A stretch of 64,000 bases of DNA from Bacteriovorax sp. MedPE-SWde. Lineage in GTDB: Bacteria > Bdellovibrionota > Bacteriovoracia > Bacteriovoracales > Bacteriovoracaceae. Below, in pieces: positions 47,856 through 64,000 of this stretch; within the stretch, counting starts at the first letter, position 1, and each line of letters starts with the position of its first letter. Both the position numbers and the translations under genes were made by a program. The notes beneath the pieces are model-generated. The model was not told where the DNA came from, searched no databases, and saw only the letters and a list, made by a program, of their open reading frames with translations. The stretch is taken from positions 69,525 through 133,524 of the forward strand of contig MPCU01000012.1 of the NCBI GenBank assembly GCA_001874305.1. Reading direction: 5' to 3'.

Positions 47856-47889
47856 TTATGGCAAAATCCCTTAATTGGAGATATGTGCT

Positions 47890-48909
47890 ATGAGTCAGAA
47901 AATAAGAGTTTTAATTGCCGATACTTTTGATCCTTGGTTTAACCTTGCTACTGAAGACTGGATCTTTCGTGACATGGATCCAGAGGTTAAGGTTCTCTTT
48001 CTTTGGAGAAACTCAGATACTGTTGTAATTGGCAGGTTTCAAAACCCATTCACAGAATGTAATACCGCAAAAATGGATGCAGACAATGTTAAGTTGGCCC
48101 GCAGACAAAGTGGTGGTGGTGCAGTTTTTCATGACCTAGGAAATACTAACTTCACTTTCATGTCTGGTAAGAGTAGTTATGACAAGACTGAAAACAATGA
48201 AATAATTATAAGAGCACTCGCTCATTTTGGAGTTAAGGCATACGCCTCAGGTCGAAATGATATATGTGTCGAAAAAGAAGATGGCCCTAGAAAGATCTCT
48301 GGTAGTGCTTTTAAAGAAACAAAAGATAGAGCGTTTCACCATGGGACATTATTAATTGATGCAAATTTATCTCGACTGGCAAATTATTTAAACCCTGATA
48401 AGAAGAAACTCGTATCTAAGGGGGTTCAATCTGTTAGATCCCGTGTAGCTAATCTTACAGAATTTAAAAGCGATATTACTAATGATGCTCTATGTGATCA
48501 AATAATAAAAGAGTTCTTTAAATTCTATGAATCTGAATGTGATGTTGAGTACCTCGACTATGACTATCTCAAAACAGTTCCAGCATTAAATGAATATTAC
48601 GAAAAGTTAAAAGATTGGAAGTGGCGCTTTGGTGAGACACCGAAGTTTACCCATACTCTTGATGAGAGATTTGAGTGGGGTGGTATGGAAGTTCATATCG
48701 ATTCACATAAGGGAATGATTAAAGATGTGAGAATCTTTTCAGATAGTTTACATCCTGAGATGATTGAGCTCTTAAGTACCAATCTTGTTGGTAAGGAATA
48801 CAATGCACAAGGTATTTCTATGGCATGTCATGAAACAGTGCTAGAGCTACCTATGATTGAAGAGTATGTGAAAGACTTTTCTAATTGGATTGGAAATAAA
48901 ATAAGCTAG
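47890..48909 (+). CDS. lplA: Lipoate-protein ligase A
   Basis: DPWFNLATE, RRQSGGGAVFHD, KISGSAF, HHGTLL, SVRSRV; C-terminal small domain. Confidence 0.95.
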   Translation: MSQKIRVLIADTFDPWFNLATEDWIFRDMDPEVKVLFLWRNSDTVVIGRFQNPFTECNTAKMDADNVKLARRQSGGGAVFHDLGNTNFTFMSGKSSYDKTENNEIIIRALAHFGVKAYASGRNDICVEKEDGPRKISGSAFKETKDRAFHHGTLLIDANLSRLANYLNPDKKKLVSKGVQSVRSRVANLTEFKSDITNDALCDQIIKEFFKFYESECDVEYLDYDYLKTVPALNEYYEKLKDWKWRFGETPKFTHTLDERFEWGGMEVHIDSHKGMIKDVRIFSDSLHPEMIELLSTNLVGKEYNAQGISMACHETVLELPMIEEYVKDFSNWIGNKIS

Positions 48910-49349
48910 ATACTTTTTACTTTTCCAAAACCGTGTAAGACTTTTTCAACTGTTAACATTCTGTTTAAGAGGCCTTTTGCTAGGGCCTCACGTTTAGTGT
49001 CTTGATCTTTAATAGCCTTTTTTATTTCTTCTCTGACTTTTTTGAGATCGTCTGCGTGCTGATCAGATAGCTCTTTTTTGATAACTCTCATTTCTTTTCT
49101 TATTTGATCAAGTAAATTATTTTTCTTAGGTGATTTAATCCTTGATTCTAGTGATGATATTTTCTTTTCAAGTTTTGAGAATTTAGTCTCTAGATCTGTT
49201 TTATACTCAGAGGTGAACGATGTGAGATATTTTTCAATGTGTCCAATTCTGTTATACTTTCCGCCACCTGGAGCATCGGCTCCATTGAAGGTGTCAAGAG
49301 CATGTATTGAGAATGATAAAAGTGTAAAAGCGTAGATTAGTTTCTTCAT
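48906..49349 (-). CDS. Secreted coiled-coil hypothetical protein
   Basis: Signal peptide, heptad repeats; TTGTCA-N17-TACAAT 6 nt before ATG. Confidence 0.7.
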   Translation of the reverse strand: MKKLIYAFTLLSFSIHALDTFNGADAPGGGKYNRIGHIEKYLTSFTSEYKTDLETKFSKLEKKISSLESRIKSPKKNNLLDQIRKEMRVIKKELSDQHADDLKKVREEIKKAIKDQDTKREALAKGLLNRMLTVEKVLHGFGKVKSI

Positions 49350-49435
49350 AAAATAATTGTAGATTAGTGCATCATTAATGACAATTTATTCTTACAATCT
49401 CGCTAAAGCAGTCTATAATTTCTGGCGGAGGTACT

Positions 49436-51130
49436 ATGTCTAGACATGGAAAATATGAGTACTGGTGGAGCTATTTAAAAGAGCATAAACTTATGTACTG
49501 TCTTGGTGTACTAACGGTCGTTGTTTGTAATATTAGTCAGGTATATTTTGCTAGAGCTATGGGACATATTGTTGATTTTTTCAGCGATAATGCAATTCCT
49601 GGTTGGCTAGTCCAAGACGATAAGAAATCGACATTTATTTTTCTCTTTCTCACAATTCTTATATCTAGAGTTTTTCTAATGTTAGGCAGAATGGGGTGGA
49701 GGTTAACTCTTGCAAGGCAAACTCATCAGGCCGCAGGAGATATGAAAGATAAGATTTGGAAGAATGCTAAATATTTTTCTACTGCAGACCTTGTGGATAA
49801 ATATCCTAAAGGTGTTCTCATGAACGCTGCAAATAGTGATGTTGGCCAAGCTCGATTTATTTTTGGGTTTACCTTAGTAGGTCTTATTGATGTTATATTC
49901 TTGGGTATTTTTACCTTAGTGAGTATGTTTCAAATTAACGCTTTATTAACTTTAGCATCTCTTCTCCTTTTAGGATTTACTCCAATCGCTATTAAGAAAC
50001 TATCAAAGATCGAAGTTGAAAACTATGAAAGAGCACAAAACTTTCTTTCAGAGTTTAATGATCTTTCCTCACAGGCCGTTGCAACGGTAAAGCTTCAGAA
50101 ATTAGGGCAGACTGCAAAATTTTGGTTTAAAAGACTCTATGCGAGTGCCAGTGAATATAGAGAAAGAAGATTAAGCGCTCATTATACTTCTCTTAAATAT
50201 ATTCCATATATTGGAATGACTTCTATTTTGGCCTATGTCGTTCTATTCTCTCTTGGAGTTTATCTCAATATAACAGGGCAACTTACTGTTGGTGAGTTTG
50301 TAGCAATGCAAGGACTTGTCTTTTTACTACAGGATCCTCTTGTTGAGCTTGGGTATATTATCTCTGACTGGCGAAAATCTGGTACTAGCTTACAGCGTTT
50401 AGAAAATATCTATCGAAACCCTAAAGAAGACTATTTATTACAAAGTGATTCAACAGATATCTCTGGGCAATCAGTTTATTCAATAGATAATTTAAAATTT
50501 AACTATGGTGATAATGTTATTCTCGATGGAATAGACCTTAGAATAAGCAAAGGTGATCGAATTGGTGTGACTGGCAAAATTGGCTCTGGAAAGTCTACTC
50601 TTGTTAATATTTTATCTGGTCTTGAAAGAGACTTTAGAGGTGATGTTAACTTCTATAATAAAGAATTTTCTAAGTACTCTCATCATGATCTTAGAGAACA
50701 TATCGTGTGCGTACATCAAAAGCCATTTCTCTTTGCTGACTCTATTAAATCTAATGTAGCAATGGATAGAGATATGACTGATGAACAAGTTTGGCATTTC
50801 TTATCAATGGCCGGACTTGGGCCTGAAGTTCTAGACTTTGAAGATGGACTAAATACTCAACTTGGTGAATGGGGAATTAATCTTTCAGGTGGACAAAAGC
50901 AGAGACTAACTCTTGCTAGGGCCCTGTCTCGAAAGCCTGAAGTTCTACTCTTGGATGATGGCCTCTCTGCTGTTGATACAGTAACAGAAGAAAAGATATT
51001 AAGTAATTTAAATAAGCAGCTTAAAGATACGACTATTATATGGGTGGCCCATAGGAAATCTACTTTAAAGTACTGTGATAAAATAATTGATTTGGATGGA
51101 CCATGTCTGGAAAAAACTATATTGCAATAG
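49436..51130 (+). CDS. ABC exporter, fused permease/ATPase (MdlA-like half)
   Basis: 6 TM + GKIGSGKST, LSGGQKQR, LLDDGLSAVD. Confidence 0.93.
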   Translation: MSRHGKYEYWWSYLKEHKLMYCLGVLTVVVCNISQVYFARAMGHIVDFFSDNAIPGWLVQDDKKSTFIFLFLTILISRVFLMLGRMGWRLTLARQTHQAAGDMKDKIWKNAKYFSTADLVDKYPKGVLMNAANSDVGQARFIFGFTLVGLIDVIFLGIFTLVSMFQINALLTLASLLLLGFTPIAIKKLSKIEVENYERAQNFLSEFNDLSSQAVATVKLQKLGQTAKFWFKRLYASASEYRERRLSAHYTSLKYIPYIGMTSILAYVVLFSLGVYLNITGQLTVGEFVAMQGLVFLLQDPLVELGYIISDWRKSGTSLQRLENIYRNPKEDYLLQSDSTDISGQSVYSIDNLKFNYGDNVILDGIDLRISKGDRIGVTGKIGSGKSTLVNILSGLERDFRGDVNFYNKEFSKYSHHDLREHIVCVHQKPFLFADSIKSNVAMDRDMTDEQVWHFLSMAGLGPEVLDFEDGLNTQLGEWGINLSGGQKQRLTLARALSRKPEVLLLDDGLSAVDTVTEEKILSNLNKQLKDTTIIWVAHRKSTLKYCDKIIDLDGPCLEKTILQ

Positions 51131-52905
51131 ATGATCAAGATGAAAGTGTCGTAAACAAGAAGCAGTATGCTGAATGGCGATCTTTTTTATTTTTAATGAA
51201 ATTCACTGAAGGTCTGAGGACTGGACTTTTTGTAGCACTGGGCCTACTTCTTATATACTCGGTGATGGCAATGCTATCTGGTTATGCCATGGGTGTATTG
51301 GTAGGAGAGGGACTTGCCAAGAAGAACTGGGATTTGACATATAAATGGTCTGCTATTGTACTTCTTGCTGAATTATTCGCTCTTAGCTTACATTATTATG
51401 GTCGAAAAATACTTACTCGTAATGCAAGTTTCGTAATCTTGAATATAAGAGAGACTCTCTTTAAAAAATTGTCCTCTCTACCTATGTCATTCTTTGATAG
51501 ATGGCCTCAGGGTCGTATCGTTACGAGGATGACCCATGATGTAGAAGGGGTTGAACAATTCTTTACTGCATCTTTGGGACGTATGCTCAATGCATTCTTT
51601 CTAGCCATGGCCGCGGCCGTTGCCATGTTAAGTAGTGATTTTAAACTTGGCACCATCTTAATCTTATCAATGATTCCTGCACTTCTTGTCGTTCTATTAA
51701 CTAGAACAAAAGTTAATATTATTAATAGAAAGATGAGTAAGCTTGCATCTGAAATAAACTCAAAGCTAAGCGAATATATTGATGGTCTCTATGTGATCAG
51801 GGCCTTTGGACTTGAAAAATGGTCTCAAGGAATTTTTTCTAAAAATGTTCAAGATCATGTTGATATTACTTTAAAGGCGAATACCTTCTATGGTTGGTCG
51901 AGACCCTTAGTTTCATTTCTTTGTAGTATGCCTCTTGTTCTTCTTGTCTGGTTTGGTGGATTAAAGCTAATGGAAGGTGTTATTACTCTTGCAGTCTTTG
52001 TCGCTTTTGTTAGATATGCTGAAAGATTCTTTGGTCCCGTGATGATGCTATTTAGAGAAGTTCACGTGATCCTACAGGCCTTTACTTCAGCCCAGAGGGT
52101 GGCAAATTTCTTAAGAGAAGATAGTGAAGCTGATCTTTTTATGAAAGGTGAAGTCTATCCAGGAAAGGCCATTTATGGTGATATTGAATTTAGAGATGTT
52201 TGGATGGGGTATAATGAAGATTCTTGGTCTTTAAAAGGTGTTTCATTTAAAGTTAAAAAAGGGGAGAAGATAGGAATTGTCGGAACGACTGGTAGTGGGA
52301 AAACTACAACTATTTCAATTCTTTCTCGCTTATATGACTTCCAAAAAGGTGATGTGCTCATTGATGGTCAATCTATAAAGGATTGGGATATTGCAAACCT
52401 TAGGGAACAAATAGGATTAGTTTCTCAAGATGTTATCATTTTTCAAGGAACTCTTAGAGATAACTTAACTGTAGACCCCGCTCTTAGCGATGAAGAAATT
52501 TTAAGAGTGGCAGAAATAACTGGTCTATCACTTGTTATGAAGAAAAATAACTTGGCCTTAAACGATCTTATTAAAGACGGTGGTGCCAATATGAGTGCGG
52601 GTGAAAAACAGGTACTTTCTTTAACAAGAACTTGTCTACTTAATCCTCATATCTTGATACTTGATGAAGCAACTGCGCATGTAGATCCTTATTATGAAAA
52701 AATCCTTCATGATGGAGTTGAAAATGTCATGGAAGATAAGACTTCATTTATAATTGCGCACAGACTAGATACAATTAAAGAGTGTGATAGAGTGCTTGTA
52801 TTCTCTGACGGTAAACTTGTCGAAGTTGGTAGTCCAGATGGACTTATGGATGAGAAGGGTGTTTTCTTTGGATTAACGCAGGCCCAAGAGTTTGTTGAGT
52901 CTTAG
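51103..52905 (+). CDS. ABC exporter, fused permease/ATPase (MdlB-like half)
   Basis: 6 TM + GTTGSGKTT, MSAGEKQ (non-canonical signature), ILDEATA, IAHRL; heterodimer partner of upstream gene. Confidence 0.93.
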   Translation: MSGKNYIAIDDQDESVVNKKQYAEWRSFLFLMKFTEGLRTGLFVALGLLLIYSVMAMLSGYAMGVLVGEGLAKKNWDLTYKWSAIVLLAELFALSLHYYGRKILTRNASFVILNIRETLFKKLSSLPMSFFDRWPQGRIVTRMTHDVEGVEQFFTASLGRMLNAFFLAMAAAVAMLSSDFKLGTILILSMIPALLVVLLTRTKVNIINRKMSKLASEINSKLSEYIDGLYVIRAFGLEKWSQGIFSKNVQDHVDITLKANTFYGWSRPLVSFLCSMPLVLLVWFGGLKLMEGVITLAVFVAFVRYAERFFGPVMMLFREVHVILQAFTSAQRVANFLREDSEADLFMKGEVYPGKAIYGDIEFRDVWMGYNEDSWSLKGVSFKVKKGEKIGIVGTTGSGKTTTISILSRLYDFQKGDVLIDGQSIKDWDIANLREQIGLVSQDVIIFQGTLRDNLTVDPALSDEEILRVAEITGLSLVMKKNNLALNDLIKDGGANMSAGEKQVLSLTRTCLLNPHILILDEATAHVDPYYEKILHDGVENVMEDKTSFIIAHRLDTIKECDRVLVFSDGKLVEVGSPDGLMDEKGVFFGLTQAQEFVES

Positions 52906-55918: not shown

Positions 55919-56533
55919 TTACTTAATATTTAAAAGTTCTACATCAAAGATAAGTGTTGCTCCTGGACCAATTGCCGGTGGTGCACCTTGATCACCATAA
56001 GCTAGTGATGAAGGAATAAATAGTTGCCACTTTGAACCTTCAGTCATTAGCTGAAGAGCTTCAGTCCAACCTGCAATTACTCTATTTACTGGGAATGTTG
56101 CAGGAGTTCCTCTTTGGTATGAAGAATCAAAAACTTCTCCATTGATAAGACGACCTTCGTAATGTGCTTCAATTTCATTTTCAGCAGTTGGCTTATTTCC
56201 TGTACCTTCTGTAAGTACTTTATACTGAAGTCCACTTGGAAGAGTTTGAACTCCCTCTGCACTTTTGTTTGTCTCAAGAAATTTCTTTCCTTCTTCAACA
56301 TTTGCAGATGCCGCTTCTTTCATCATTTCAGCTTGCTTTGCTTGCATAATAGTTTGAAAAGAAGTCATTACTTCTTGAATTTCTTCCTGTCCCATTTCAC
56401 TTGGCTCTCCAGCAAATGCTGATGAAAGTGAAGAACAGAATGTTTCCATATCTGCTTGAATACCTTGATTCTTAAGGTCAGAACCAATTTGTTGTCCTAG
56501 AATATAACTTACTTTTTTCCAATCAATACTCAT
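55919..56533 (-). CDS. FKBP-type peptidyl-prolyl isomerase (FklB/Mip-like, no signal peptide)
   Basis: KVSYILG dimerisation helix, SGLQYKVL, FDSS, VIAGWTEAL, LIFDVELL. Confidence 0.95.
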   Translation of the reverse strand: MSIDWKKVSYILGQQIGSDLKNQGIQADMETFCSSLSSAFAGEPSEMGQEEIQEVMTSFQTIMQAKQAEMMKEAASANVEEGKKFLETNKSAEGVQTLPSGLQYKVLTEGTGNKPTAENEIEAHYEGRLINGEVFDSSYQRGTPATFPVNRVIAGWTEALQLMTEGSKWQLFIPSSLAYGDQGAPPAIGPGATLIFDVELLNIK

Positions 56534-56598
56534 AAAATCTCCTGTGAGTTAAGCAGAAGTTATATCATTACTAGGCATTGATTAAAAATCACTTTGCG

Positions 56599-57669
56599 TC
56601 ATTTGAGGGGGATTTTCTCTTTGAGGAGCTCTTTATTCTCTTGAAACCAAGTATCTGTGTCCCAGTTCTTTAGAATTGTTTCTCTTTCTGAACTGTCAAA
56701 GCTAACTTTGTTATTTATAATATTTGAAAAGCTTCGGGTAAAGTTTTCTAAGTCAGATTCTACAATATTTACTGATTCAATTCCTTCTCTTCCTAGAGGT
56801 GTCGAAAGGACTATCCCATTTGTCATTAGAGCTTCAACTATCTTAAGTCTTGTACCACTTCCATGTTGAAGAGGAACAAGGTGTAAGTATGACTCTGCAA
56901 AAAGGGCCGATACCTCATTGTGGTCGAGATTTTCTCGAAGAGTGAAGTTTGATTTCTTTATCATTTCTCTTTGTTCATTACTCGGATTTCTACCTGCGAT
57001 AATAAACTCAAAGCTTTTGAGGTGCTCTGTATTTATAACTGAGTTAAATTCATTACAGAGGTATTTAACAGCTTCAACATTTGGGAAATAATCTAGAGTA
57101 CCAATAAAGAGGATTTTATTTTTATCTTTGGCCGTATAGTAGTTATCTTTATTTATAAGGTTAGGTACCGTTATTACCTTTTCTCTCAGCTTAGGTCTCT
57201 TGGCGATTAGTATAGACCTTTCTCTTTCACTGCAAACTAATGTTAAATCACTATTTTGAATCATATTCATTTCATGATTTTCAAAGTTCTTCTTGTAAAA
57301 ACTATCTTCTCTTCCGTAGAAGTTTTCAAATTCTAAGTTGTGTGCATTGAAAATTGTGAAGGGTCTCTTTGTATTTCCTTTTAACTTCCAGTTAAATTGT
57401 CTGAGGTTATCAAGGTGAACAATGGGATTGTCCTCAACAACTATTTCTTTTCGTTTTAATAGGATAAATGGGTTCTTACCAAAGAGTAGTAGTTCAAGAT
57501 AGCTCTTAACACTAAATACTTCAGTAGCATCATCATTAAACTTATCTGATAACTCTAGGCCTAGAAGTTGATAGATTCTTCTTATGGCCGTAATTCTGAG
57601 ATGTGCACCACCAAATTTTGTAGACTTATCCAGGGATGAAATGAAGTTTAGTTTCACCTTTATTACCAA
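56599..57669 (-). CDS. GT4-family (GT-B) glycosyltransferase
   Basis: NAHNLE, FIGTLDYFPN, GSGTRLKIVEAL, STPLGREG. Confidence 0.88.
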   Translation of the reverse strand: MVIKVKLNFISSLDKSTKFGGAHLRITAIRRIYQLLGLELSDKFNDDATEVFSVKSYLELLLFGKNPFILLKRKEIVVEDNPIVHLDNLRQFNWKLKGNTKRPFTIFNAHNLEFENFYGREDSFYKKNFENHEMNMIQNSDLTLVCSERERSILIAKRPKLREKVITVPNLINKDNYYTAKDKNKILFIGTLDYFPNVEAVKYLCNEFNSVINTEHLKSFEFIIAGRNPSNEQREMIKKSNFTLRENLDHNEVSALFAESYLHLVPLQHGSGTRLKIVEALMTNGIVLSTPLGREGIESVNIVESDLENFTRSFSNIINNKVSFDSSERETILKNWDTDTWFQENKELLKEKIPLK

Positions 57670-58694
57670 AGTGATTCTGTTGTAAGAACTCCATGGGCCA
57701 TATTAATTTTTAACGGAGTAACTTCATTAATAGAAAGTGCCTGCATATAACCAAGTACTAAGGCCAGATTTGTAACATCTGTCGCAGCATACTTTGAGTC
57801 AATCTTCTTATCATTAAGCTTTGCTCTTTTTAATAAGGTCTTTAAGAGATTGGTTTGATTATACTTCTTCTTACCAAGTTGTCCTCTAACTGAGTAATAG
57901 TGGACTCCACCAACTCCAATAACTTGGTGGCCCTTAAGCTGTCCAAGTAGAGGTCTTGCATCTTTTGTTGCGTAATCTCTTGCCATAGACATTGAGTTTA
58001 CAGCAGTTTTCTTTCCAAGAGGATTAGGTGACTTTCTTTTCTTCTTATAGAACTTTTTTAAGAGCTTATTTTTAAAACTTACTGAAGCAAGTTTTCCTAG
58101 GTAGATTGTTTTTTCTTTTCCCTCAGATGGTTTTACTATTTGCATACTTCCGCCGCCAATATCCCAGACAGCGATAGGCTTAGAAGTAATCTTTCCAGAT
58201 GTTTTGGCCATAGACATGGCCGAGTTATATCCAAACAGAGCTTCATCTTCTTGAGTGATTACTTTAATTCTAAACTTTACTGATTTCTCAATTTTTGACT
58301 TAGTTTCAGTAGCGTTAGAAGCTGTTCTAAAAGCTGATGTTGCTACAGCTCTAATTTTCTTAGCACCTTGAGATGTCGCTAAGAATCTAAGTTCATTTAG
58401 ACCTTTAATGGCCTTGGCGGTAATATCGTTATTAAATAAATTTTTCTTGTTTCTTTGGAGTGCTTCTTTAAAAGGTATTGCTCGTTGTGCTTCAAATACA
58501 ACATGATCAATGGTTCTTTGACATGTATTAACAAGTGCAACTACTAACTTAGAGGTTCCTGAGCCAATGTCTATGGCCCCTCTTTTTTCAAAACATGAGC
58601 TATTAGTATGCTCAGATTGTTGAGTGATTGCGCAACTTGATATTGTTAATAGTATAAATAGAGCAATAAAACTTCTAACGATAAACAAATGCAT
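57663..58694 (-). CDS. Lipoprotein Ppx/GppA-fold (ASKHA) phosphatase
   Basis: Lipobox ISSC; DIGSGTSK, ATSAFR, EDEALFG, DIGGGSMQ. Confidence 0.85.
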   Translation of the reverse strand: MHLFIVRSFIALFILLTISSCAITQQSEHTNSSCFEKRGAIDIGSGTSKLVVALVNTCQRTIDHVVFEAQRAIPFKEALQRNKKNLFNNDITAKAIKGLNELRFLATSQGAKKIRAVATSAFRTASNATETKSKIEKSVKFRIKVITQEDEALFGYNSAMSMAKTSGKITSKPIAVWDIGGGSMQIVKPSEGKEKTIYLGKLASVSFKNKLLKKFYKKKRKSPNPLGKKTAVNSMSMARDYATKDARPLLGQLKGHQVIGVGGVHYYSVRGQLGKKKYNQTNLLKTLLKRAKLNDKKIDSKYAATDVTNLALVLGYMQALSINEVTPLKINMAHGVLTTESLW

Positions 58695-59826
58695 CTCCTC
58701 TGACGTTTTCTATGATCTTAGAAACTTGAACTTTCTTCTTAGTTCCCTCTTCGGCAGATTTTAAATATTCTTTGTACATCTTTTTAATTGCTTGTCCGAT
58801 TGCCTTTCCCATCATTGGTGGAACAGCATTTCCAATTTGGCGCCATTGAGCAGATAGTGGACCTTCAAAAATGAAGTCATTTGGGAAGCTCTGTACTTTT
58901 GCAGCTTCTCTTTGAGTGAGATATCTATTTTCTGTAGGATGATAGTAGCTATGTCTATGTGTCATAATAGTTGGTGACACACTATTTCTATCAAGTCTTT
59001 GAAATTTAGTTTGGCGAAATCTTCCTTCTCTAATTGTTTGCCAATCGACACCCAATTTTAAAGATGGTGTGAGATAAGCTTTCTCATCTCTTTCATATCT
59101 AATTCCTTTTCCTTCAGGAATTCTTTTAAGTCTTCTTTCATCAATCTTAGACTTAACCTTTGCAGATTCTAAATCGTGATTGTGAATTGTTCCATCTTTA
59201 CATTCAAGATCAGCGAAGGCCTCTCCCACTGTATAAGGAGCTCTATAGGTCTTTGCAATAATGGTGTCGTGAGTCTTTTTTGGAAAGTTAACTTTCTCGT
59301 TTACTCGACTTCCAATAAAAATAGTTCGTCTTCTCTTTTCCGGAACACCATAGTGTTGTGAGCTGAGGACTTGAACATCCATATTGTAACCAAGAGATCC
59401 AAACTTTTTAAAGATCGATTTTAGGGTACTCTCGTTCTTCTTTGCTAGAAGTCCTGTAACATTCTCAATTACAACAAATTCTGGCTTAGTTAATCTTACG
59501 ATTCTAACGAATTCCATAAAGAGGTTATTACGCATATCTTCTGGGTTACCCGGTCCAACTGTTGAAAAACCTTGGCAGGGTGGGCCACCAACAACAAGGT
59601 TGATTTTTCTATCACCCAAGATCTGTTTAATTTGCTTATTTGAGAACTTTGTAACATCGCCACAGAATGGATGAGCATTCTTGTGGTTCTTTGCAAATGT
59701 TGTCATTGCGTGTTTGTTGAAGTCTATTCCCATGACACAGTTAAAACCTGCCATTTCCAGACCACATGAAAAACCACCAGCGCCACTGAAGACGTCGATA
59801 AAATTAAGCTTTCCTTTTCCTGTCAT
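58675..59826 (-). CDS. C5 cytosine DNA methyltransferase (orphan)
   Basis: Motif I FSGAGG, IV GGPPCQGFS, VI ENV, VIII PEKRRR, IX-X RYLTQREAA..FP and IGNAVPP; start moved to ATG 59826. Confidence 0.96.
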   Translation of the reverse strand: MTGKGKLNFIDVFSGAGGFSCGLEMAGFNCVMGIDFNKHAMTTFAKNHKNAHPFCGDVTKFSNKQIKQILGDRKINLVVGGPPCQGFSTVGPGNPEDMRNNLFMEFVRIVRLTKPEFVVIENVTGLLAKKNESTLKSIFKKFGSLGYNMDVQVLSSQHYGVPEKRRRTIFIGSRVNEKVNFPKKTHDTIIAKTYRAPYTVGEAFADLECKDGTIHNHDLESAKVKSKIDERRLKRIPEGKGIRYERDEKAYLTPSLKLGVDWQTIREGRFRQTKFQRLDRNSVSPTIMTHRHSYYHPTENRYLTQREAAKVQSFPNDFIFEGPLSAQWRQIGNAVPPMMGKAIGQAIKKMYKEYLKSAEEGTKKKVQVSKIIENVRGDAFVYR

Positions 59827-59893
59827 ATCGTCCCTGTAATTTTGTGAAGTGTAGGGAATTATTATCATTTTAACAGGGGTAAACTGTCAAATA

Positions 59894-60526
59894 TTACGCG
59901 GCATGTTTGTTGCTGTTTTCGACATAATTTCTATCATCTTGTGGTGAGTCATCAACAGAAGTTGAAATTATATGGAAGTTCTTCCTTGGTCCTTGTTTAA
60001 TTTGTGCAACAAGTAAAGATTCCCATTGTTGAGGGATGTCACCTGAAACTATTATTGATCTCTTTTTGTCAGTTACTTCTCTTTTCATAATTCTGGCCAT
60101 TCTTTCGTTTAGTCCAGGAGTGAAAGAGATTTTATCCATATGAATAAATACCATTTTCTGTGGAGAGCATAGAAATGACTTTAGAATTGAGAATAATTTA
60201 GCTGTTTCGTAATCGACTTGCTTTATAGGGTCCTCAAGATCATATCTCTTAAATAAGAACTCGTTGAGATGACTGGCATTTCTTTCTTCAAGTGCTTTAG
60301 CGCAATCAAACTTTTCTAAATCATTAGTTAATTCTCGAAAGAGGAATTCCTTAATAGTGATGTCTGACTCGAAATGAATCTTATCTTCAACGTAAGTGAA
60401 AGGAAATCTCCCTCTATAACCAGCATATTTTGAGAATGTCATAAATTCTTTTAAAGGATTAACGCTACAGTTGTTACTGAAACGAAATAGTCCACCATTT
60501 TGAAATAGTCTCTTCAATTCACTCAT
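59894..60526 (-). CDS. Degenerate ABC-ATPase-like protein
   Basis: ABC-like order (YVEDKIHFESDITIKEFL; LFSILKSFL..P.KMVFI; IIVSGD) without Walker A/B, LSGGQ or H-loop; AGGAG RBS. Confidence 0.45.
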   Translation of the reverse strand: MSELKRLFQNGGLFRFSNNCSVNPLKEFMTFSKYAGYRGRFPFTYVEDKIHFESDITIKEFLFRELTNDLEKFDCAKALEERNASHLNEFLFKRYDLEDPIKQVDYETAKLFSILKSFLCSPQKMVFIHMDKISFTPGLNERMARIMKREVTDKKRSIIVSGDIPQQWESLLVAQIKQGPRKNFHIISTSVDDSPQDDRNYVENSNKHAA

Positions 60527-60635
60527 AAATTATCTCCTAAATACATCTTCTTATCGACTTAAATTTCATCAACTTAAATACAAGAGTAAATTGCCTGTAA
60601 TTACATAAAGCAGCTAGAAGGCCTATAATTTTCTT

Positions 60636-61865
60636 ATGGATTTAAAGACTGGTGATACTGTTATTATTGGCATGGATGGAGGGATTGACTCCACTGTTGC
60701 TGCATATTTATTAAAGAAGCAAGGTATGAATTGCATTGGTGTTTCTGTCATCTTTCATGAAGATGATATGGACGATTTTTCTGAGCTTGTTTCATCCTGG
60801 CTACCGGATGATCTTGAGCACGTAAAAGAAGTTTGCAAAGTCTTGGAGATTCCGTTCTATGCAACAAATGCCAGCGATCTTTACTTTGATACTGTAGTCG
60901 ATAAGATAACAGCAGCAAGACTGTCAGGTCAGGCCTATGAGCCAATGATTGATAGAACATCCGCTGTTCTTAATACCCTGCTTTCTAAAAGAGATGCCCT
61001 TGGTGCAAAAGTTGTAGCGACGGGACACTTTTGTAAGATATTAAAAAATCAAACAACAGGAATGCTTAATCTTTATAGAGGAAATGATTTAGAAGAGGAT
61101 GATAGTTATTATCTAACAAAGATGGATACAAAGCTTCTCGAGTATCTTCACTTTCCTCTTGCTGAGCTAAGAGAGCAAGAGGTGCTAAAGGTGGCGGCCC
61201 TTATTCCTACAAAGTTTAATATTGATAAAGAGGCCAGAAGAGAAAGTAGACTGAACTTTATGCAAAATGAAGGCGTTAAAGAGCTAGTTGAAAAGTATTC
61301 CGCTCCTAAACTAAGACGTGAAGGGATCGTTTTAAATTATTATGATTCAGGAACAGTTGGTGATCACGAGGGAATACATCAATTTTTTATTGGCCAGAAC
61401 AATGTACCAATTAAAGGAAAAGTTGCTCGTGATAAAGAGTCTCAAGTGCTAAGAGTTGTACCGTCAACAGGTACAGTCCTTATGGAAAAAGAGGAGAGAC
61501 TGAAGTTTTCTCATGCTTATTTGATTCAATTCAATGCTGATGAAAATCTTAATAGGTCACTACCAATGAATTGCTACGCAATGTTAGGACCTCGAAAAGA
61601 AGTTATTAAGTGCACTCTCTATTTTAAAAATAATGGATCTGTCTTAGTCGATTTTATTGATGAAATTCAAGGTGTATTGGCCAGAGGACAGTATGTTGTT
61701 CTGTATAATAAAAAAGGAATTGGAGCACGTGTTGTCGGTGGAGGAGTCGTAAGAATTTCTGGCTACTTTGATGATGGTGATTTCATGACATTGCCTAAAA
61801 CTAAAGACCAAGAAGAAGACTTAGAGAATCAAGAAAAACAAAAGAAGAAGGATTTAGGGTTTTAG
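60636..61865 (+). CDS. MnmA-like protein lacking catalytic cysteines
   Basis: MDGGIDS, ATGHF, DDSYYL, FPLAEL, RGQYVVLY, GGGVV follow MnmA order; Cys positions read EPMIDRT and ESRLNFM. Confidence 0.85.
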   Translation: MDLKTGDTVIIGMDGGIDSTVAAYLLKKQGMNCIGVSVIFHEDDMDDFSELVSSWLPDDLEHVKEVCKVLEIPFYATNASDLYFDTVVDKITAARLSGQAYEPMIDRTSAVLNTLLSKRDALGAKVVATGHFCKILKNQTTGMLNLYRGNDLEEDDSYYLTKMDTKLLEYLHFPLAELREQEVLKVAALIPTKFNIDKEARRESRLNFMQNEGVKELVEKYSAPKLRREGIVLNYYDSGTVGDHEGIHQFFIGQNNVPIKGKVARDKESQVLRVVPSTGTVLMEKEERLKFSHAYLIQFNADENLNRSLPMNCYAMLGPRKEVIKCTLYFKNNGSVLVDFIDEIQGVLARGQYVVLYNKKGIGARVVGGGVVRISGYFDDGDFMTLPKTKDQEEDLENQEKQKKKDLGF

Positions 61866-63023
61866 ATGAAGAGATTAGTAATATTTTTATGCTTTGTACT
61901 TAGCTTTCTTTCAACTGATGTATTTGGTTATGTTCTTCGTGACTATGATAGAAACCCAAAGAGCTCTCATCACCTTTCGAGATCACTTAAAAAATTTAAA
62001 AAAGAGGAGCTTATAAAAATCCTCAGAGGTTTTGTAAAAGAAACCAGACCAACTCGTATTATTGGAAGTAAGGGGCATTTCAAGTCTGTAGACTACGTCC
62101 TCAATCATATCTCTACAAAAACAAATAAAGAAGGAGAGTTAGTCGTTATTGATGACTTTACTCCTGATATTGATCAAGCAATAAAGATGTATAACGCTGA
62201 CCTTGAAGACATCAAAAAATCTGGTCTTAATCAGAAATCTGCTGAGTTTAAAAGACTTTCAAACTTTACAATGACTAGAAATAAACACCTTGAAAAGTTA
62301 AGAAAACAAAGAGGGCGAAATATTATTTGGGAAAAGAAAGGCTCAGTATCTCCTGAAGAAGTTATAGTTATTGGTGCTCACTACGATACTGTTGCCTATG
62401 ATAAGAAGACACTTAAAGTCCTTCCTGATGTTCCCCAACCTGGAGCAGATAATAACGCTTCTGGAGTTTCAATAAGTCTTGCTCTAATTGAAGTTCTTTC
62501 GGAACTAAAGCTAAAGAAAACTGTGAGAGTTATATTCTTTGATTTTCAAGAGTTTGGTTTTTTAGGATCTTGGGATTATGCTAAGAAGTTAAAAGAAGAA
62601 AAAAAGAAAGGCCTAAAAGTTACCAGCTACGTAAATCTCTTAATGCTTGGACATGATTCAAAGATTCAAGATAAGGCCAAAAAGTATGGAAATATGAAGC
62701 TATACTATTCTAGACCTGGATCGGAAACTCATGCTGTAGAGAAGACTGTTGCAACAAAGCTTGCATCTATGGGAAAAAAGGTTGGAACTAGAGTTAAATT
62801 TATGGCCGAAGAAAATAGCTTTTCAAATGGAGATAATGTTTCTTTTGTCGAGAACGGTATTCCAGCGATCACGTTCACGCAAAACTGGGAAGATGACTTC
62901 AATTCTAAGCGTATTCATACTTCAAGAGACTTCGTAGAAACCCTCAATTTTGATACTCTTTATGGAAGTTTTCTCTTCGTTTCCCAGGCCATATCGAGCT
63001 GGGCGCTAAATATTGATAAATAA
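61866..63023 (+). CDS. Exported M28-fold peptidase homologue with substituted active site
   Basis: IGAHYD, GADNNASG, FDFQEFG, NLLMLG, IHT; signal peptide. Confidence 0.85.
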   Translation: MKRLVIFLCFVLSFLSTDVFGYVLRDYDRNPKSSHHLSRSLKKFKKEELIKILRGFVKETRPTRIIGSKGHFKSVDYVLNHISTKTNKEGELVVIDDFTPDIDQAIKMYNADLEDIKKSGLNQKSAEFKRLSNFTMTRNKHLEKLRKQRGRNIIWEKKGSVSPEEVIVIGAHYDTVAYDKKTLKVLPDVPQPGADNNASGVSISLALIEVLSELKLKKTVRVIFFDFQEFGFLGSWDYAKKLKEEKKKGLKVTSYVNLLMLGHDSKIQDKAKKYGNMKLYYSRPGSETHAVEKTVATKLASMGKKVGTRVKFMAEENSFSNGDNVSFVENGIPAITFTQNWEDDFNSKRIHTSRDFVETLNFDTLYGSFLFVSQAISSWALNIDK

Positions 63024-63079
63024 TTCCCAGATCTGAGCTTTTAGTTCACTAATTACTGTGTATTTGGTAAGTAGGTGGA

Positions 63080-64000
63080 ATGAGTATTGGAAAAGGTAAA
63101 ACAGTAATTATTGGTATGTCAGGAGGGGTTGATTCTTCTGTTTGTGCCGCTGTATTAAAAGAGCAAGGCTATAACGTCATTGGTATGTTCATGCGTAACT
63201 GGGAAGAGTTCGATGAAAATGGTGTTTGTGAGGCCTCTAAAGAGTATGCAGACGTTATAACTGTATGTGAGAAGCTTGATATCCCTTACTACTCAGTCGA
63301 CTTTGTTAAAGAGTATAAAGACAATGTCTTCTCTCACTTTGTTTCTGAATATGAACAAGGTTTTACACCTAATCCTGATATCCTATGTAATAGAGAAATT
63401 AAATTCAAAGTCTTCTTTGAAAAAGCAATGGAGCTTGGAGCAGACTATCTTGCAACAGGTCACTATTGCCAAAATATCCTCATTGATGGAAAGCACAGAC
63501 TTGTAAAAGGAAATGATCCAGGAAAGGACCAGACATATTTTCTCTACACGATGAGAGAAGAAGTACTGGCAAAGGTTCTCTTTCCTATCGGACATATTCC
63601 AAAATCTGAAGTTAGAGAAATTGCAAAAAAGTACGATCTCATTACTGCTAATAAGAAAGACTCTACGGGAATTTGCTTTATTGGTGAGAGAAACTTTAGA
63701 CAATTTCTGTCCAACTATATTCAAATTAAGCCAGGTAAGTTTGAACTTCTAAATGGTGAAGTTGTAGGTGAGCATCAAGGTGCGACTTACTATACACTTG
63801 GTCAAAGAAAAGGTCTTGGGCTTGGCGGTCCAGGTGAGCCATGGTTTGTTGTCGCTAAAGATATTGAGAGAAATGTTGTCATCGTTGAAAGAGGTGAATT
63901 TCACCCTGCTCTTTATTGTGATGATTTAACTGCAACTGAATTATCTTGGGTTGAAAAAGATTTTGTTCCGAGCACTCCATTTAAAGCAATGGCAAAAGTT
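63080..64000 (+). CDS. mnmA: tRNA 2-thiouridine(34) synthase MnmA (runs off window end)
   Basis: Not in ORF track; hand translation MSIGKGKTVIIGMSGGVDSS, MRNW, PNPDILCN, ATGHY, KDQTYFL, KDSTGICF, YTLGQRKGL. Confidence 0.97.
   Translation, partial: MSIGKGKTVIIGMSGGVDSSVCAAVLKEQGYNVIGMFMRNWEEFDENGVCEASKEYADVITVCEKLDIPYYSVDFVKEYKDNVFSHFVSEYEQGFTPNPDILCNREIKFKVFFEKAMELGADYLATGHYCQNILIDGKHRLVKGNDPGKDQTYFLYTMREEVLAKVLFPIGHIPKSEVREIAKKYDLITANKKDSTGICFIGERNFRQFLSNYIQIKPGKFELLNGEVVGEHQGATYYTLGQRKGLGLGGPGEPWFVVAKDIERNVVIVERGEFHPALYCDDLTATELSWVEKDFVPSTPFKAMAKV

Follow-up and report, generated by a model that had tools for sequence, protein, structure and literature searches.

In the 64,000-nucleotide stretch of DNA from Bacteriovorax sp. 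MedPE-SWde that we analysed (the window), an uninterrupted reading frame at 60636..61865 on the forward strand (ATG to TAA) specifies a 409-amino acid protein with the fold of MnmA, which is among the most conserved tRNA-modification enzymes. Judged by alignment, every residue required for MnmA chemistry has gone from this protein, here termed MnmA2. In MnmA itself the PP-loop (SGGxDS) serves ATP binding and adenylation, and the product is s2U34 on tRNA-Glu/Gln/Lys. MnmA2 is held by purifying selection, and we put at about an even chance the reading that it is a non-catalytic descendant of an Fe-S MnmA, which binds tRNA or other RNA, a partner, or both, and so helps the U34-thiolation/translation pathway.

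Fold and active site of MnmA2

The initial annotation had described a full-length, uninterrupted MnmA-like ORF with three domains, and on this point Pfam, the NCBIfam alignment and AF2/Foldseek agree. The HMM search that it had proposed placed the HUP domain (PF03054) on residues 8-190 (E 5.9e-33) and also recovered the C-terminal barrel (PF20258, E 3.7e-7), with a weak match to PF20259. The NCBIfam MnmA equivalog NF001138 aligned over positions 2-345 of 345 to residues 9-372 (E 1.6e-52). The resemblance to MnmA is far beyond chance, since it is seen in the Pfam and NCBIfam matches and in 28% identity to the product of the intact mnmA at 63080. For a protein to count as MnmA in NCBIfam its score must reach the curated equivalog cut-off, and MnmA2 lies below this for both NF001138 (178.5 bits against 284) and TIGR00420 (146.7 bits against 236.95). 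Its AF2 model (pLDDT 93.9) found as best Foldseek matches the MnmA structures 2hma, 2deu, 2det and 2der (TMt 0.82-0.87; TM to the E. coli and S. pneumoniae enzymes 0.82-0.87), and TtuA/NcsA structures matched the N-terminal domain only (TMq ~0.27-0.3). As modelled, the three-domain architecture of MnmA (HUP catalytic domain, PRC-barrel and C-terminal barrel) is complete.

The active site is a different matter. The three degenerate motifs reported earlier are present exactly as described: MDGGIDS at residues 13-19 (60672..60692, forward strand), where the first Ser of the canonical SGGxDS has become Asp; EPMIDRT at residues 102-108 (60939..60959, forward), in the position of NP[D/C]xxCN; and ESRLNFM at residues 203-209 (61242..61262, forward), in the position of KDSxGICF. 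The [D/C]-x-x-C pair of MnmA corresponds to Asp99/Cys102 in E. coli and Cys105/Cys108 in Thermus thermophilus, and the second catalytic or cluster-ligand cysteine is Cys199/Cys200. In MnmA2, M104 occupies the position of Asp99/Cys, R107 that of Cys102 and N207 that of Cys199 (E. coli numbering). The annotation had named cysteines at the catalytic positions as grounds for abandoning its reading, and the alignment places none of the five cysteines of the protein (33, 67, 133, 313 and 326) there. One loss had escaped it: the first conserved MnmA cysteine (Cys50 of the intact copy) is replaced by W55 (60798..60800, forward), in a column that is Cys in 100% of canonical MnmA, 100% of Cys-retaining MnmA2 and 3% of Cys-less MnmA2. 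Together with the Lys of KDQ, the losses comprise Asp/Cys99, Cys102, Cys199, the fourth co-conserved Cys, the active-site Lys of CNxxIKF and the first PP-loop Ser. Asp/Cys99, Cys102 and Cys199 are needed in both published MnmA mechanisms; mutation of D99, C102 or C199 in the E. coli enzyme abolishes function in vitro and in vivo (PMC8053098), and the PP-loop substitution D13A inactivates T. thermophilus MnmA (PMC7025502).

What is kept lies elsewhere in the fold. The TGH motif (T129-G130-H131; 61020..61028, forward) and D155 (61098-61100, forward) together form the floor of the nucleotide pocket and are conserved in 95-99% of the MnmA2 family, and the barrel-domain signature common to canonical MnmA (G230, H244-x-G246, G253-Q254 and G351) is kept in 90-96%. 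Helix alpha1, TGH and D155 stay conserved while the active-site loops vary: the two loops that line it rank with the most variable segments of the protein (2.7 and 3.2 bits of entropy, where the mean is 2.3), and ESRLNFM lies in the family's most variable, indel-rich stretch.

Family, origin and selection

The family to which MnmA2 belongs comprises more than 200 clusters (50% identity), and its named sources are all Bacteriovorax, Halobacteriovorax or Bdellovibrionales; as far as sources are named, it is confined to Bacteriovorax/Halobacteriovorax-type predators. Among the papers searched we found none that describes a Cys-less or PP-loop-degenerate MnmA paralogue, and the family is apparently undescribed so far. 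Several sources label its proteins 'tRNA-specific 2-thiouridylase' or 'tRNA methyltransferase', labels that are almost certainly wrong for the Cys-less members.

The four cysteines and the active-site Lys are kept in ~43% of members and jointly lost in the remainder, and the distribution indicates that this joint loss occurred several times independently. In the Cys-retaining members the four cysteines and Lys111 are conserved as one unit, which implies a working metal site there; a single function for the whole family may therefore not hold. The joint loss of the four cysteines bears on the debate over the MnmA mechanism: it suggests that the extra one (the equivalent of T. thermophilus Cys55/56), although dispensable in vitro, has a functional link with the cluster site in vivo. 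Most members, Cys-retaining and Cys-less alike, have a degenerate PP-loop, of the type TGR, TGG, DGG, SGG, TGK, NGD, DGS and others. SGGxDS is found in just 4-14% of the family as against 35 of 35 canonical comparators, and the loop Asp is replaced by E, S, A, N, K, Q or H in ~35%. We also scanned metagenomes with the Cys-retaining sub-alignment to ask whether 'intact-looking' members are the sole MnmA of their genome. The matches listed were mostly canonical MnmA and added at least ~5 MnmA2 loci, all with the usual synteny. The family offers a natural series on one conserved scaffold, from Fe-S ligands with a near-intact PP-loop, through Fe-S ligands with a degenerate PP-loop, to neither. It is therefore well suited to studying how an enzyme that modifies RNA and depends on a nucleotide turns into a pseudo-enzyme, and what its scaffold is reused for.

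The initial annotation had presented MnmA2 as a strongly diverged MnmA paralogue, and here one correction is needed: the protein did not arise by divergence from the mnmA next to it. The neighbouring gene is D-type (NPDxxCN) in every locus, while early-branching MnmA2 members still contain C..CxxC..C and the lowest-scoring matches to the MnmA2 profile grade into ordinary C-type MnmA. By these sequence criteria, the source of MnmA2 is the Fe-S (C-type) lineage, and the adjacent D-type gene is not its parent.

The suggestion of a maintained pseudo-enzyme has fared better: orthologues are abundant, syntenic and full length, with neither frameshift nor stop in ~25 of ~25 loci and in more than 200 cluster representatives (30-100% identity). 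Between the window and a 77%-identical orthologue, MnmA2 has dN 0.177 and pS 0.73, giving omega of ~0.06, far from the value near 1 proposed as a sign of decay. In the same pair of genomes, dN is 0.19 for the adjacent M28 peptidase gene and 0.31 for a hypothetical neighbour, and two further orthologue pairs gave the same ranking. Because synonymous sites are saturated in all usable pairs (pS 0.71-0.80), only upper bounds and the comparison of dN with neighbouring genes are meaningful; across pairs, MnmA2 has dN of 0.16-0.26, at or below that of its neighbours. Contigs with an identical MnmA2 protein differed by 0-3 synonymous SNPs, in a look-up that is biased by design.

Cys-retaining and Cys-less members share further hallmarks equally: new basic residues, an acidic tail that ends in Phe, and an FKNN hairpin. 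The new conserved basic residues are R95, K118, R179, K185, K331 and R365; the window protein carries all of these as well as the family marks L115, P310, N332 and N333, and such mark residues occur in 71-100% of the family as against 0-60% of canonical MnmA. The canonical basic residues K154, R184, R255 and R318 are missing. Canonical MnmA conserves 19 basic positions; since only ~5-6 of them survive in MnmA2, and the net charge of the central domain shifts from +3 to about -2, the canonical mode of tRNA docking may be lost. The family-specific hairpin (K331-N332-N333; 61623..61634, forward) lies in the C-terminal barrel, and its site is K/R in 85-93% and N in 71-92% of MnmA2, compared with 3-17% in canonical MnmA. 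The tail, also family-specific, is an acidic/charged helical extension (residues 374-409; 61755..61862, forward) that ends ...QEKQKKKDLGF-COOH, a hydrophobic-x-Phe end, and is modelled by AF2 at high pLDDT as a strand (382-384) and a helix (390-406). Mean tail length is ~36 residues in MnmA2 and ~4 in canonical MnmA, and 172 of 211 members end in Phe, most frequently as LGF, FKF or MGF. Because Cys-retaining (80%) and Cys-less (82%) members are alike in this respect, as against 11% of canonical MnmA, the Phe-ended tail predates the loss of the cysteines.

The MnmA2 locus

A promoter-like sequence, ATTACA-18-TATAAT (60600..60629, forward; a consensus match only), precedes MnmA2. Its -10 box ends 6 nt 5' of the ATG and a Shine-Dalgarno sequence is absent, so that the transcript is possibly leaderless; the TATAAT-N6-7-ATG layout recurs in several orthologous loci. 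The MnmA2 stop codon abuts the ATG of a gene for an M28 peptidase whose N-terminus resembles a signal peptide (61866..63023, forward; Pfam), and mnmA starts 57 nt 3' of the latter. We found no terminator-like site between the three genes, which form a putative operon. In 14 of 17 loci the M28 gene separates MnmA2 from mnmA, and a D-type mnmA lies downstream of MnmA2 in 13 of 16 other loci. In the window this gene (63080..64000, forward; assigned by motifs, Pfam and NCBIfam) ends at the window edge after 307 of 384 codons; it is 384 amino acids long in contigs of the identical strain. It has the motifs MSGGVDS, NPDILCN and KKDSTGICF and scores 396 (NF001138) and 363 (TIGR00420) even though cut by the window end. 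Both cysteine codons sit at 63386 and 63674, just where the annotation had put them. In one contig mnmA looks split, but a run of N there marks a gap in the scaffold, and we rejected the split as biology.

Divergently from MnmA2, at 59894..60526 on the reverse strand, lies a gene for a 210-residue protein that is a degenerate ABC-ATPase (NBD) fold on its own, and whose C-terminus, KKAA/KHAA, is conserved. This protein had no match in Pfam. Its family profile matched the ABC-F protein ExpZ (2.6e-8), ABCE1 and MacB in the PDB, and its AF2 model (pLDDT 73.5) gave ABC NBDs as all of its best Foldseek matches. A member of this pseudo-ABC family, or a positional counterpart, adjoins MnmA2 divergently in 16 of 16 loci and in the window. 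Synteny reaches further, to LplA, two ABC exporter genes, Dcm and a histidine kinase. Since conserved order runs well past the operon, gene order on its own is weak evidence for a functional link between MnmA2 and mnmA, and the argument from it is weakened accordingly; the region is simply stable in this lineage. We also considered whether the very conserved C5-methyltransferase upstream (58675-59868) is a Dnmt2-like tRNA m5C enzyme, and rejected this: it matches DNA methylases (cytosine-specific 3g7u and HaeIII) with E of 1e-37 to 1e-39, and Dnmt2 at only ~1e-10. A search of the whole window found no tRNA gene, and a search of 56000-64000 found no Rfam match.

Possible roles and related systems

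On the reading we favour, MnmA2 would be unable to adenylate or thiolate U34 and would act through binding rather than catalysis. The TGH/D155 pocket floor and the two barrel domains would most likely hold a tRNA anticodon arm or other RNA, the charged, Phe-tipped tail may be a docking or self-masking element, and binding would assist or regulate the U34-thiolation/translation pathway served by the operon partner MnmA. A tRNA-binding or MnmA-partner role of this kind is a plausible proposal. MnmA is a monomer (PMC8053098), so that a MnmA-MnmA2 complex would have no ancestral dimer interface to build on.

A decaying mnmA duplicate on its way to a pseudogene might account for MnmA2 being the fastest-evolving MnmA homologue of the locus (amino acid identity of 77% in a genome pair where mnmA has 92%), but the intact frames throughout ~25 loci and more than 200 representatives, dN far under saturated dS, the confident AF2 model, and the family-specific conserved residues and gained tail refute it on the present data. 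The initial annotation had also proposed an enzyme that still adenylates and then uses a non-sulfur nucleophile; an external sulfur carrier (thiocarboxylate or free sulfide) would similarly dispense with cysteines. The intact MnmA fold, the conserved TGH and D155, and a G-G-x-[D/E]-S loop kept within the window protein's own clade are what such an enzyme would have. However, the loop differs even in close relatives (MNGDVQS, IDGSMHS and MDGKIES), the canonical loop is rare and its Asp often replaced across the family, and both the KDQ and CNxxIKF lysines are lost; moreover, the conserved constellation of residues that new chemistry would be expected to leave in the active-site loops was not found there, these being highly variable. 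We therefore regard continued catalysis as improbable.

If binding is what matters, the ligand need not be RNA. MnmA2 might be a protein-protein adaptor or regulator whose acidic Phe-ended tail and new basic patch dock or mask a partner, candidates being the divergent pseudo-ABC protein, a cysteine desulfurase/Fe-S factor or MnmA. The tail is the most distinctive feature of the family and older than the cysteine loss, most canonical basic residues are gone, and in each locus examined MnmA2 has the pseudo-ABC gene, or its positional counterpart, next to it in divergent orientation. Against this, the new conserved residues are mainly basic, which fits nucleic-acid contact, and the canonical barrel signature is largely retained; tRNA binding is the only role known for the barrel domains, from the E. 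coli MnmA-tRNA co-crystal structures. A role wholly away from RNA is possible, but we lean against it. A more specific version of our favoured reading, in which MnmA2 is a non-catalytic tRNA-handling subunit, a bacterial counterpart of Ctu2 derived from a monomeric Fe-S MnmA, strikes us as rather doubtful. MnmA2 would then bind tRNA-Glu/Gln/Lys, or tRNA derived from prey, at the anticodon arm, its Phe-tipped acidic tail would couple the tRNA to D-type MnmA and/or the co-inherited pseudo-ABC protein, and the Cys-retaining members would represent a stage using the Fe-S site without ATP chemistry, for example in sensing or desulfuration. If true, this would be a new translation-linked module specific to predatory Bdellovibrionota.

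Among known proteins, MnmA2 branches beside C-type Fe-S MnmA such as that of T. thermophilus (PMC7025502) and has the same three-domain fold, but the window protein lacks all four cysteines, the active-site Lys and SGGxDS, and the family has its own basic residues, FKNN hairpin and acidic Phe-ended tail with few of the canonical basic positions. D-type MnmA (E. coli, PDB 2DER/2DET/2DEU, and the gene at 63080) has a similar fold (TM 0.84-0.87) at 23-28% identity, with the alpha1 helix, TGH, DQS, FPL and GxHxG in common; its D99, C102 and C199 are M, R and N in the window protein, and it is not the direct parent. The C-terminal tip of SSB (acidic, ...DDDIPF) is a protein-docking and self-masking element. 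As in the MnmA2 tail, an acidic stretch there ends in hydrophobic-x-Phe-COOH, a likeness that we take as a lead only: the SSB tail is disordered, AF2 gives the MnmA2 tail as a high-pLDDT helix, and there is no homology.

A parallel in kind is Ctu2/Ncs2, a paralogue of the eukaryotic U34 thiolase Ctu1/Ncs6; it is non-catalytic, derives from a homodimeric ancestor, associates with Ctu1 and is required for thiolation (PMC10067955, PMC2651780). It is likewise a diverged PP-loop U34 thiolase paralogue without Fe-S cysteines, kept under selection beside an active paralogue. Ctu2 falls in the TtuA/Ncs6 subclass, whereas MnmA2 is of the MnmA subclass with a monomeric ancestor: its best matches are MnmA and not the zinc-finger proteins of the Ncs6/TtuA subclass, so that the comparison is an analogy and not a case of membership. 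Trm6 (in Trm6/Trm61) and ADAT3 (in ADAT2/3) are also dead paralogues kept after duplication as substrate-binding subunits. These are eukaryotic obligate hetero-oligomers of demonstrated function (the Trm6/61 case is mentioned in PMC10067955) and MnmA2 is a bacterial protein, but the evolutionary theme is the same.

Identity, maintenance and descent of the MnmA-like ORF

The ORF at 60636-61865 on the forward strand is an uninterrupted frame of 409 codons. Pfam recognised in its product a HUP domain (PF03054, E 5.9e-33) and a C-terminal barrel (PF20258, E 3.7e-7), and matched the central PRC-barrel weakly. Residues 9-372 align to positions 2-345 of the 345-position NCBI MnmA equivalog model (E 1.6e-52), with a score (178.5 bits) that falls far under the 284-bit cut-off. 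An AlphaFold2 model, built on an input alignment of 67 family sequences, was confident (pLDDT 93.9, pTM 0.89), and its top structural matches were MnmA crystal structures, including E. coli MnmA-tRNA complexes (TM 0.82-0.87, normalised to target). These results uphold the initial annotation of a full-length MnmA-like protein. The motifs that it had listed match exactly (MDGGIDS as the PP-loop where MnmA has SGGxDS, EPMIDRT at the NPDxxCN site and ESRLNFM at the KDSxGICF site), as do the Cys codons, at 63386 and 63674, of the intact mnmA gene, which starts at 63080, is cut by the window end and is 28% identical to the ORF.

A search of 5.8 billion proteins returned representatives of about 85 clusters, 400-449 aa in length and sharing 29-100% identity with the ORF, which ranked above ordinary MnmA of about 360 aa; their named sources were all Bacteriovorax, Halobacteriovorax, Bacteriovoracaceae or similar. 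Among 1.84 billion 50%-identity representatives there were at least 150 profile matches, all above 266 bits. Protein and profile searches combined gave at least 211 full-length representatives of this family, which we call MnmA2, with 'Bdellovibrionales bacterium' as an extra named source. In 18 genomes, each representing a species (all Bacteriovoracaceae/Halobacteriovorax/Oligoflexia-type MAGs), and in about seven metagenome contigs, the gene was full length without exception. Set against an orthologue with 77% identity and matching gene order, the ORF gave a dN of 0.177 and an omega of about 0.06, with synonymous sites saturated (pS 0.73). Such numerous, full-length and constrained orthologues bear out the proposal that the gene is maintained, and exclude a decaying duplicate. 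Values of dN in the same genome pair were 0.19 for the M28 peptidase, 0.31 for the upstream hypothetical gene and 0.05 for mnmA, and the ranking was identical in two more orthologue pairs.

In a neighbour-joining tree of MnmA2 members, canonical C-type (Fe-S-dependent) and D-type MnmA, and the mnmA genes adjoining MnmA2, the MnmA2 members formed a single clade, and the adjoining genes a D-type clade (PNPD[IV]LCN) within canonical MnmA. Early-branching MnmA2 members have C-x-x-C at the NPDxxCN site and Cys at both the KDSxGIC site and the first conserved Cys site, the signature of C-type MnmA (PMC7025502). The lowest-scoring matches to the MnmA2 profile were likewise ordinary C-type enzymes (SGGVDS, SCCS, PNPCVxCN). 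Given the tree and this signature, the ORF did not arise by divergence from the adjoining mnmA; its ancestor was a C-type MnmA, present alongside a D-type enzyme. The earlier reading of a paralogue thus stands as to homology, and the lineage of origin is to be revised from the D-type neighbour to the C-type.

Catalytic residues and family-specific features

The C-x-x-C plus C triad is kept in 90 of the 211 representatives, lost entirely in 109 and partial in 12. Cysteine occupies columns 55, 104, 107 and 207 (numbered as ORF residues) in 98-100% of Cys-retaining versus 0-7% of Cys-less members, and position 111 is the Lys of CNxxIKF in 85% versus 0%; the four Cys and Lys111 are lost as one unit. 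After masking of the catalytic columns, a tree that is crude and does not fix the exact count of changes placed the Cys-less state in 13 all-loss clades (the largest of 51, 46, 7 and 6 tips), requiring 13 parsimony changes. There were clearly several independent losses. The concerted loss of residues 55, 104, 107, 111 and 207 suggests that the extra N-terminal Cys, the Lys and the three cluster ligands act as a single functional unit in vivo. Column 55 corresponds to Cys50 in the intact mnmA product and to Cys55/56 of Thermus thermophilus MnmA, which are dispensable in vitro (PMC7025502).

Both groups have degenerate PP-loops: SGGxDS is found in 14% of the members that retain the cysteines and 4% of those that lack them, TGR, TGG, DGG and TGK are frequent forms, and about 35% have another residue for the loop Asp. 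Despite such loops, the Cys-retaining members show strict co-conservation of the four Cys with Lys111, which suggests that they may still use a metal (Fe-S) site without ATP chemistry. Members with all four Cys and a PP-loop lacking the glycine pair include P0133, P0153, P0203, P0212, P0222, P0227, P0233 and P0236, among others, the loops being TTKIES, TPKIES, SNNIDS, ADSIDS, NNSIDS, NKSIDA, SHSVES and NHSVDS. E. coli MnmA variants D99A, C102A and C199A have no activity in vitro or in vivo (PMC8053098), and the T. thermophilus PP-loop mutant D13A is dead (PMC7025502). In the window protein the three ligand positions read M, R and N, and the first PP-loop Ser is replaced by Asp; we infer that this protein would be unable to make s2U by either published mechanism.

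Much of the scaffold is conserved at 85-100% and is common to canonical MnmA, namely the alpha1 helix behind the PP-loop (AAYLLKKQG), I72, G98, TGH (129-131), K134, D151, D155, P174, G230, H244-x-G246, G253 and G351. The most variable folded segments are the catalytic loop 99-111 and the Cys199-bearing segment 195-212 (mean column entropy 2.7 and 3.2 bits versus a family mean of 2.3), equalled by the C-terminal tail alone. Just 5-6 of the 19 conserved basic positions of canonical MnmA survive, and R95, K118, R179, K185, K331, R365 and an FKNN hairpin are gains of MnmA2. Net charge shifts from about +3 to about -2 in the central domain and from about -2.5 to about +3 in the C-terminal barrel. 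The C-terminal extension is Asp/Glu-rich and about 36 residues long, versus about 4 in canonical MnmA; about 80% of members terminate in hydrophobic-x-Phe-COOH (commonly LGF, FKF or MGF; DLGF in the window protein), compared with a terminal Phe in 11% of canonical MnmA, and the tail is ordered in the ORF model (strand 382-384, helix 390-406). Because the basic residues, hairpin and tail are equally frequent with and without cysteines, the trait that defines the family predates, and is independent of, loss of the metal site.

Gene neighbourhood

An M28 peptidase gene (61866-63023, forward strand), whose product has a signal-peptide-like N-terminus, begins with an ATG abutting the MnmA2 stop codon and ends 57 nt before mnmA. 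No terminator-like site was seen in the window sequence between the three genes, and MnmA2 is apparently co-transcribed with the co-oriented mnmA. The peptidase gene lies between the two in 14 of 17 loci; a link to tRNA modification is not evident. Within 60600-60636 a -10-like TATAAT ends 6 nt 5' of the MnmA2 ATG without a Shine-Dalgarno sequence, and its recurrence 6-7 nt ahead of the ATG in several orthologous loci (L081, L002, L003, L008 and L010) would fit a leaderless transcript.

The order Dcm(-), hypothetical(-), MnmA2(+), M28(+), mnmA(+) is repeated in nearly all loci. Since conservation reaches beyond, to genes for LplA (lipoate-protein ligase) and two fused TMD-NBD ABC exporters (47875-52905, forward strand), synteny alone is weak evidence of a functional MnmA2-mnmA link. 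In most relatives these three genes lie directly upstream of the Dcm gene; the window lineage has an insertion there, with isocitrate/isopropylmalate dehydrogenase, FKBP, glycosyltransferase and Ppx/GppA genes and two ORFs without Pfam matches. The Dcm gene itself (58675-59868, reverse strand) codes for a C5 cytosine DNA methyltransferase; no restriction enzyme is encoded nearby, and the enzyme resembles an orphan methylase with a housekeeping role. Its conservation exceeds that of mnmA (93% aa identity, dS about 1.9, omega 0.03), with 53-67% identity over the whole group and fixed synteny. Gene calls put the start at two places, giving 383 or 397 aa, and at its 3' end the gene runs 20 nt into the start of the Ppx/GppA gene.

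The tightest neighbour of MnmA2 is the divergent gene at 59894-60526 (reverse strand), whose family comprises stand-alone proteins of 200-260 aa with a degenerate ABC-ATPase (NBD) fold, here termed pseudo-ABC. Of 17 loci, 15 have a recognisable homologue, and the remaining two have in its place a divergent ORF of like size; counterparts occur in loci L002-L018 and L081-L083. No Pfam domain was found in the window protein; the family profile matches ABC ATPases (ExpZ/ABC-F at 2.6e-8, ABCE1, MacB), and the AlphaFold2 model (pLDDT 73.5) matched solely ABC nucleotide-binding domains. Walker A, signature and Walker B, read by eye in the alignment, are all degenerate, and the conserved C-terminal KKAA/KHAA resembles a ClpX degron. 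This gene would encode a second pseudo-enzyme beside MnmA2.

Possible roles and relation to known systems

The results fit a pseudo-enzyme that acts by binding. We favour an RNA- or tRNA-binding role coupled to the MnmA pathway, a reading on which we are evenly balanced, because the barrel-domain signature is kept, the newly conserved residues are mostly basic and MnmA2 shares its orientation, and apparently its transcript, with mnmA. A role in docking to proteins alone is a serious competitor, which we consider rather unlikely; the acidic, Phe-tipped tail, the disappearance of most canonical basic residues and the presence of pseudo-ABC or a positional counterpart beside MnmA2 in every locus all speak for it. 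A new catalytic activity is more improbable still, since the loops lining the active site conserve no constellation of residues.

The window protein shares the fold of MnmA, but it lacks each catalytic feature by which that enzyme is recognised and scores below the curated cut-offs, and for these reasons should not be filed as MnmA. Full-text literature searches found no description of a cysteine-less MnmA paralogue. The window protein is real and, on strong evolutionary grounds, a dead paralogue of a tRNA-modifying enzyme. Its nearest functional analogy is Ctu2/Ncs2, a paralogue without the cysteines that serves in eukaryotes as partner of the U34 thiolase Ctu1/Ncs6 (PMC10067955). However, Ctu2/Ncs2 belongs to another PP-loop subclass and its ancestor was a dimer; MnmA, by contrast, is a monomer (PMC8053098).
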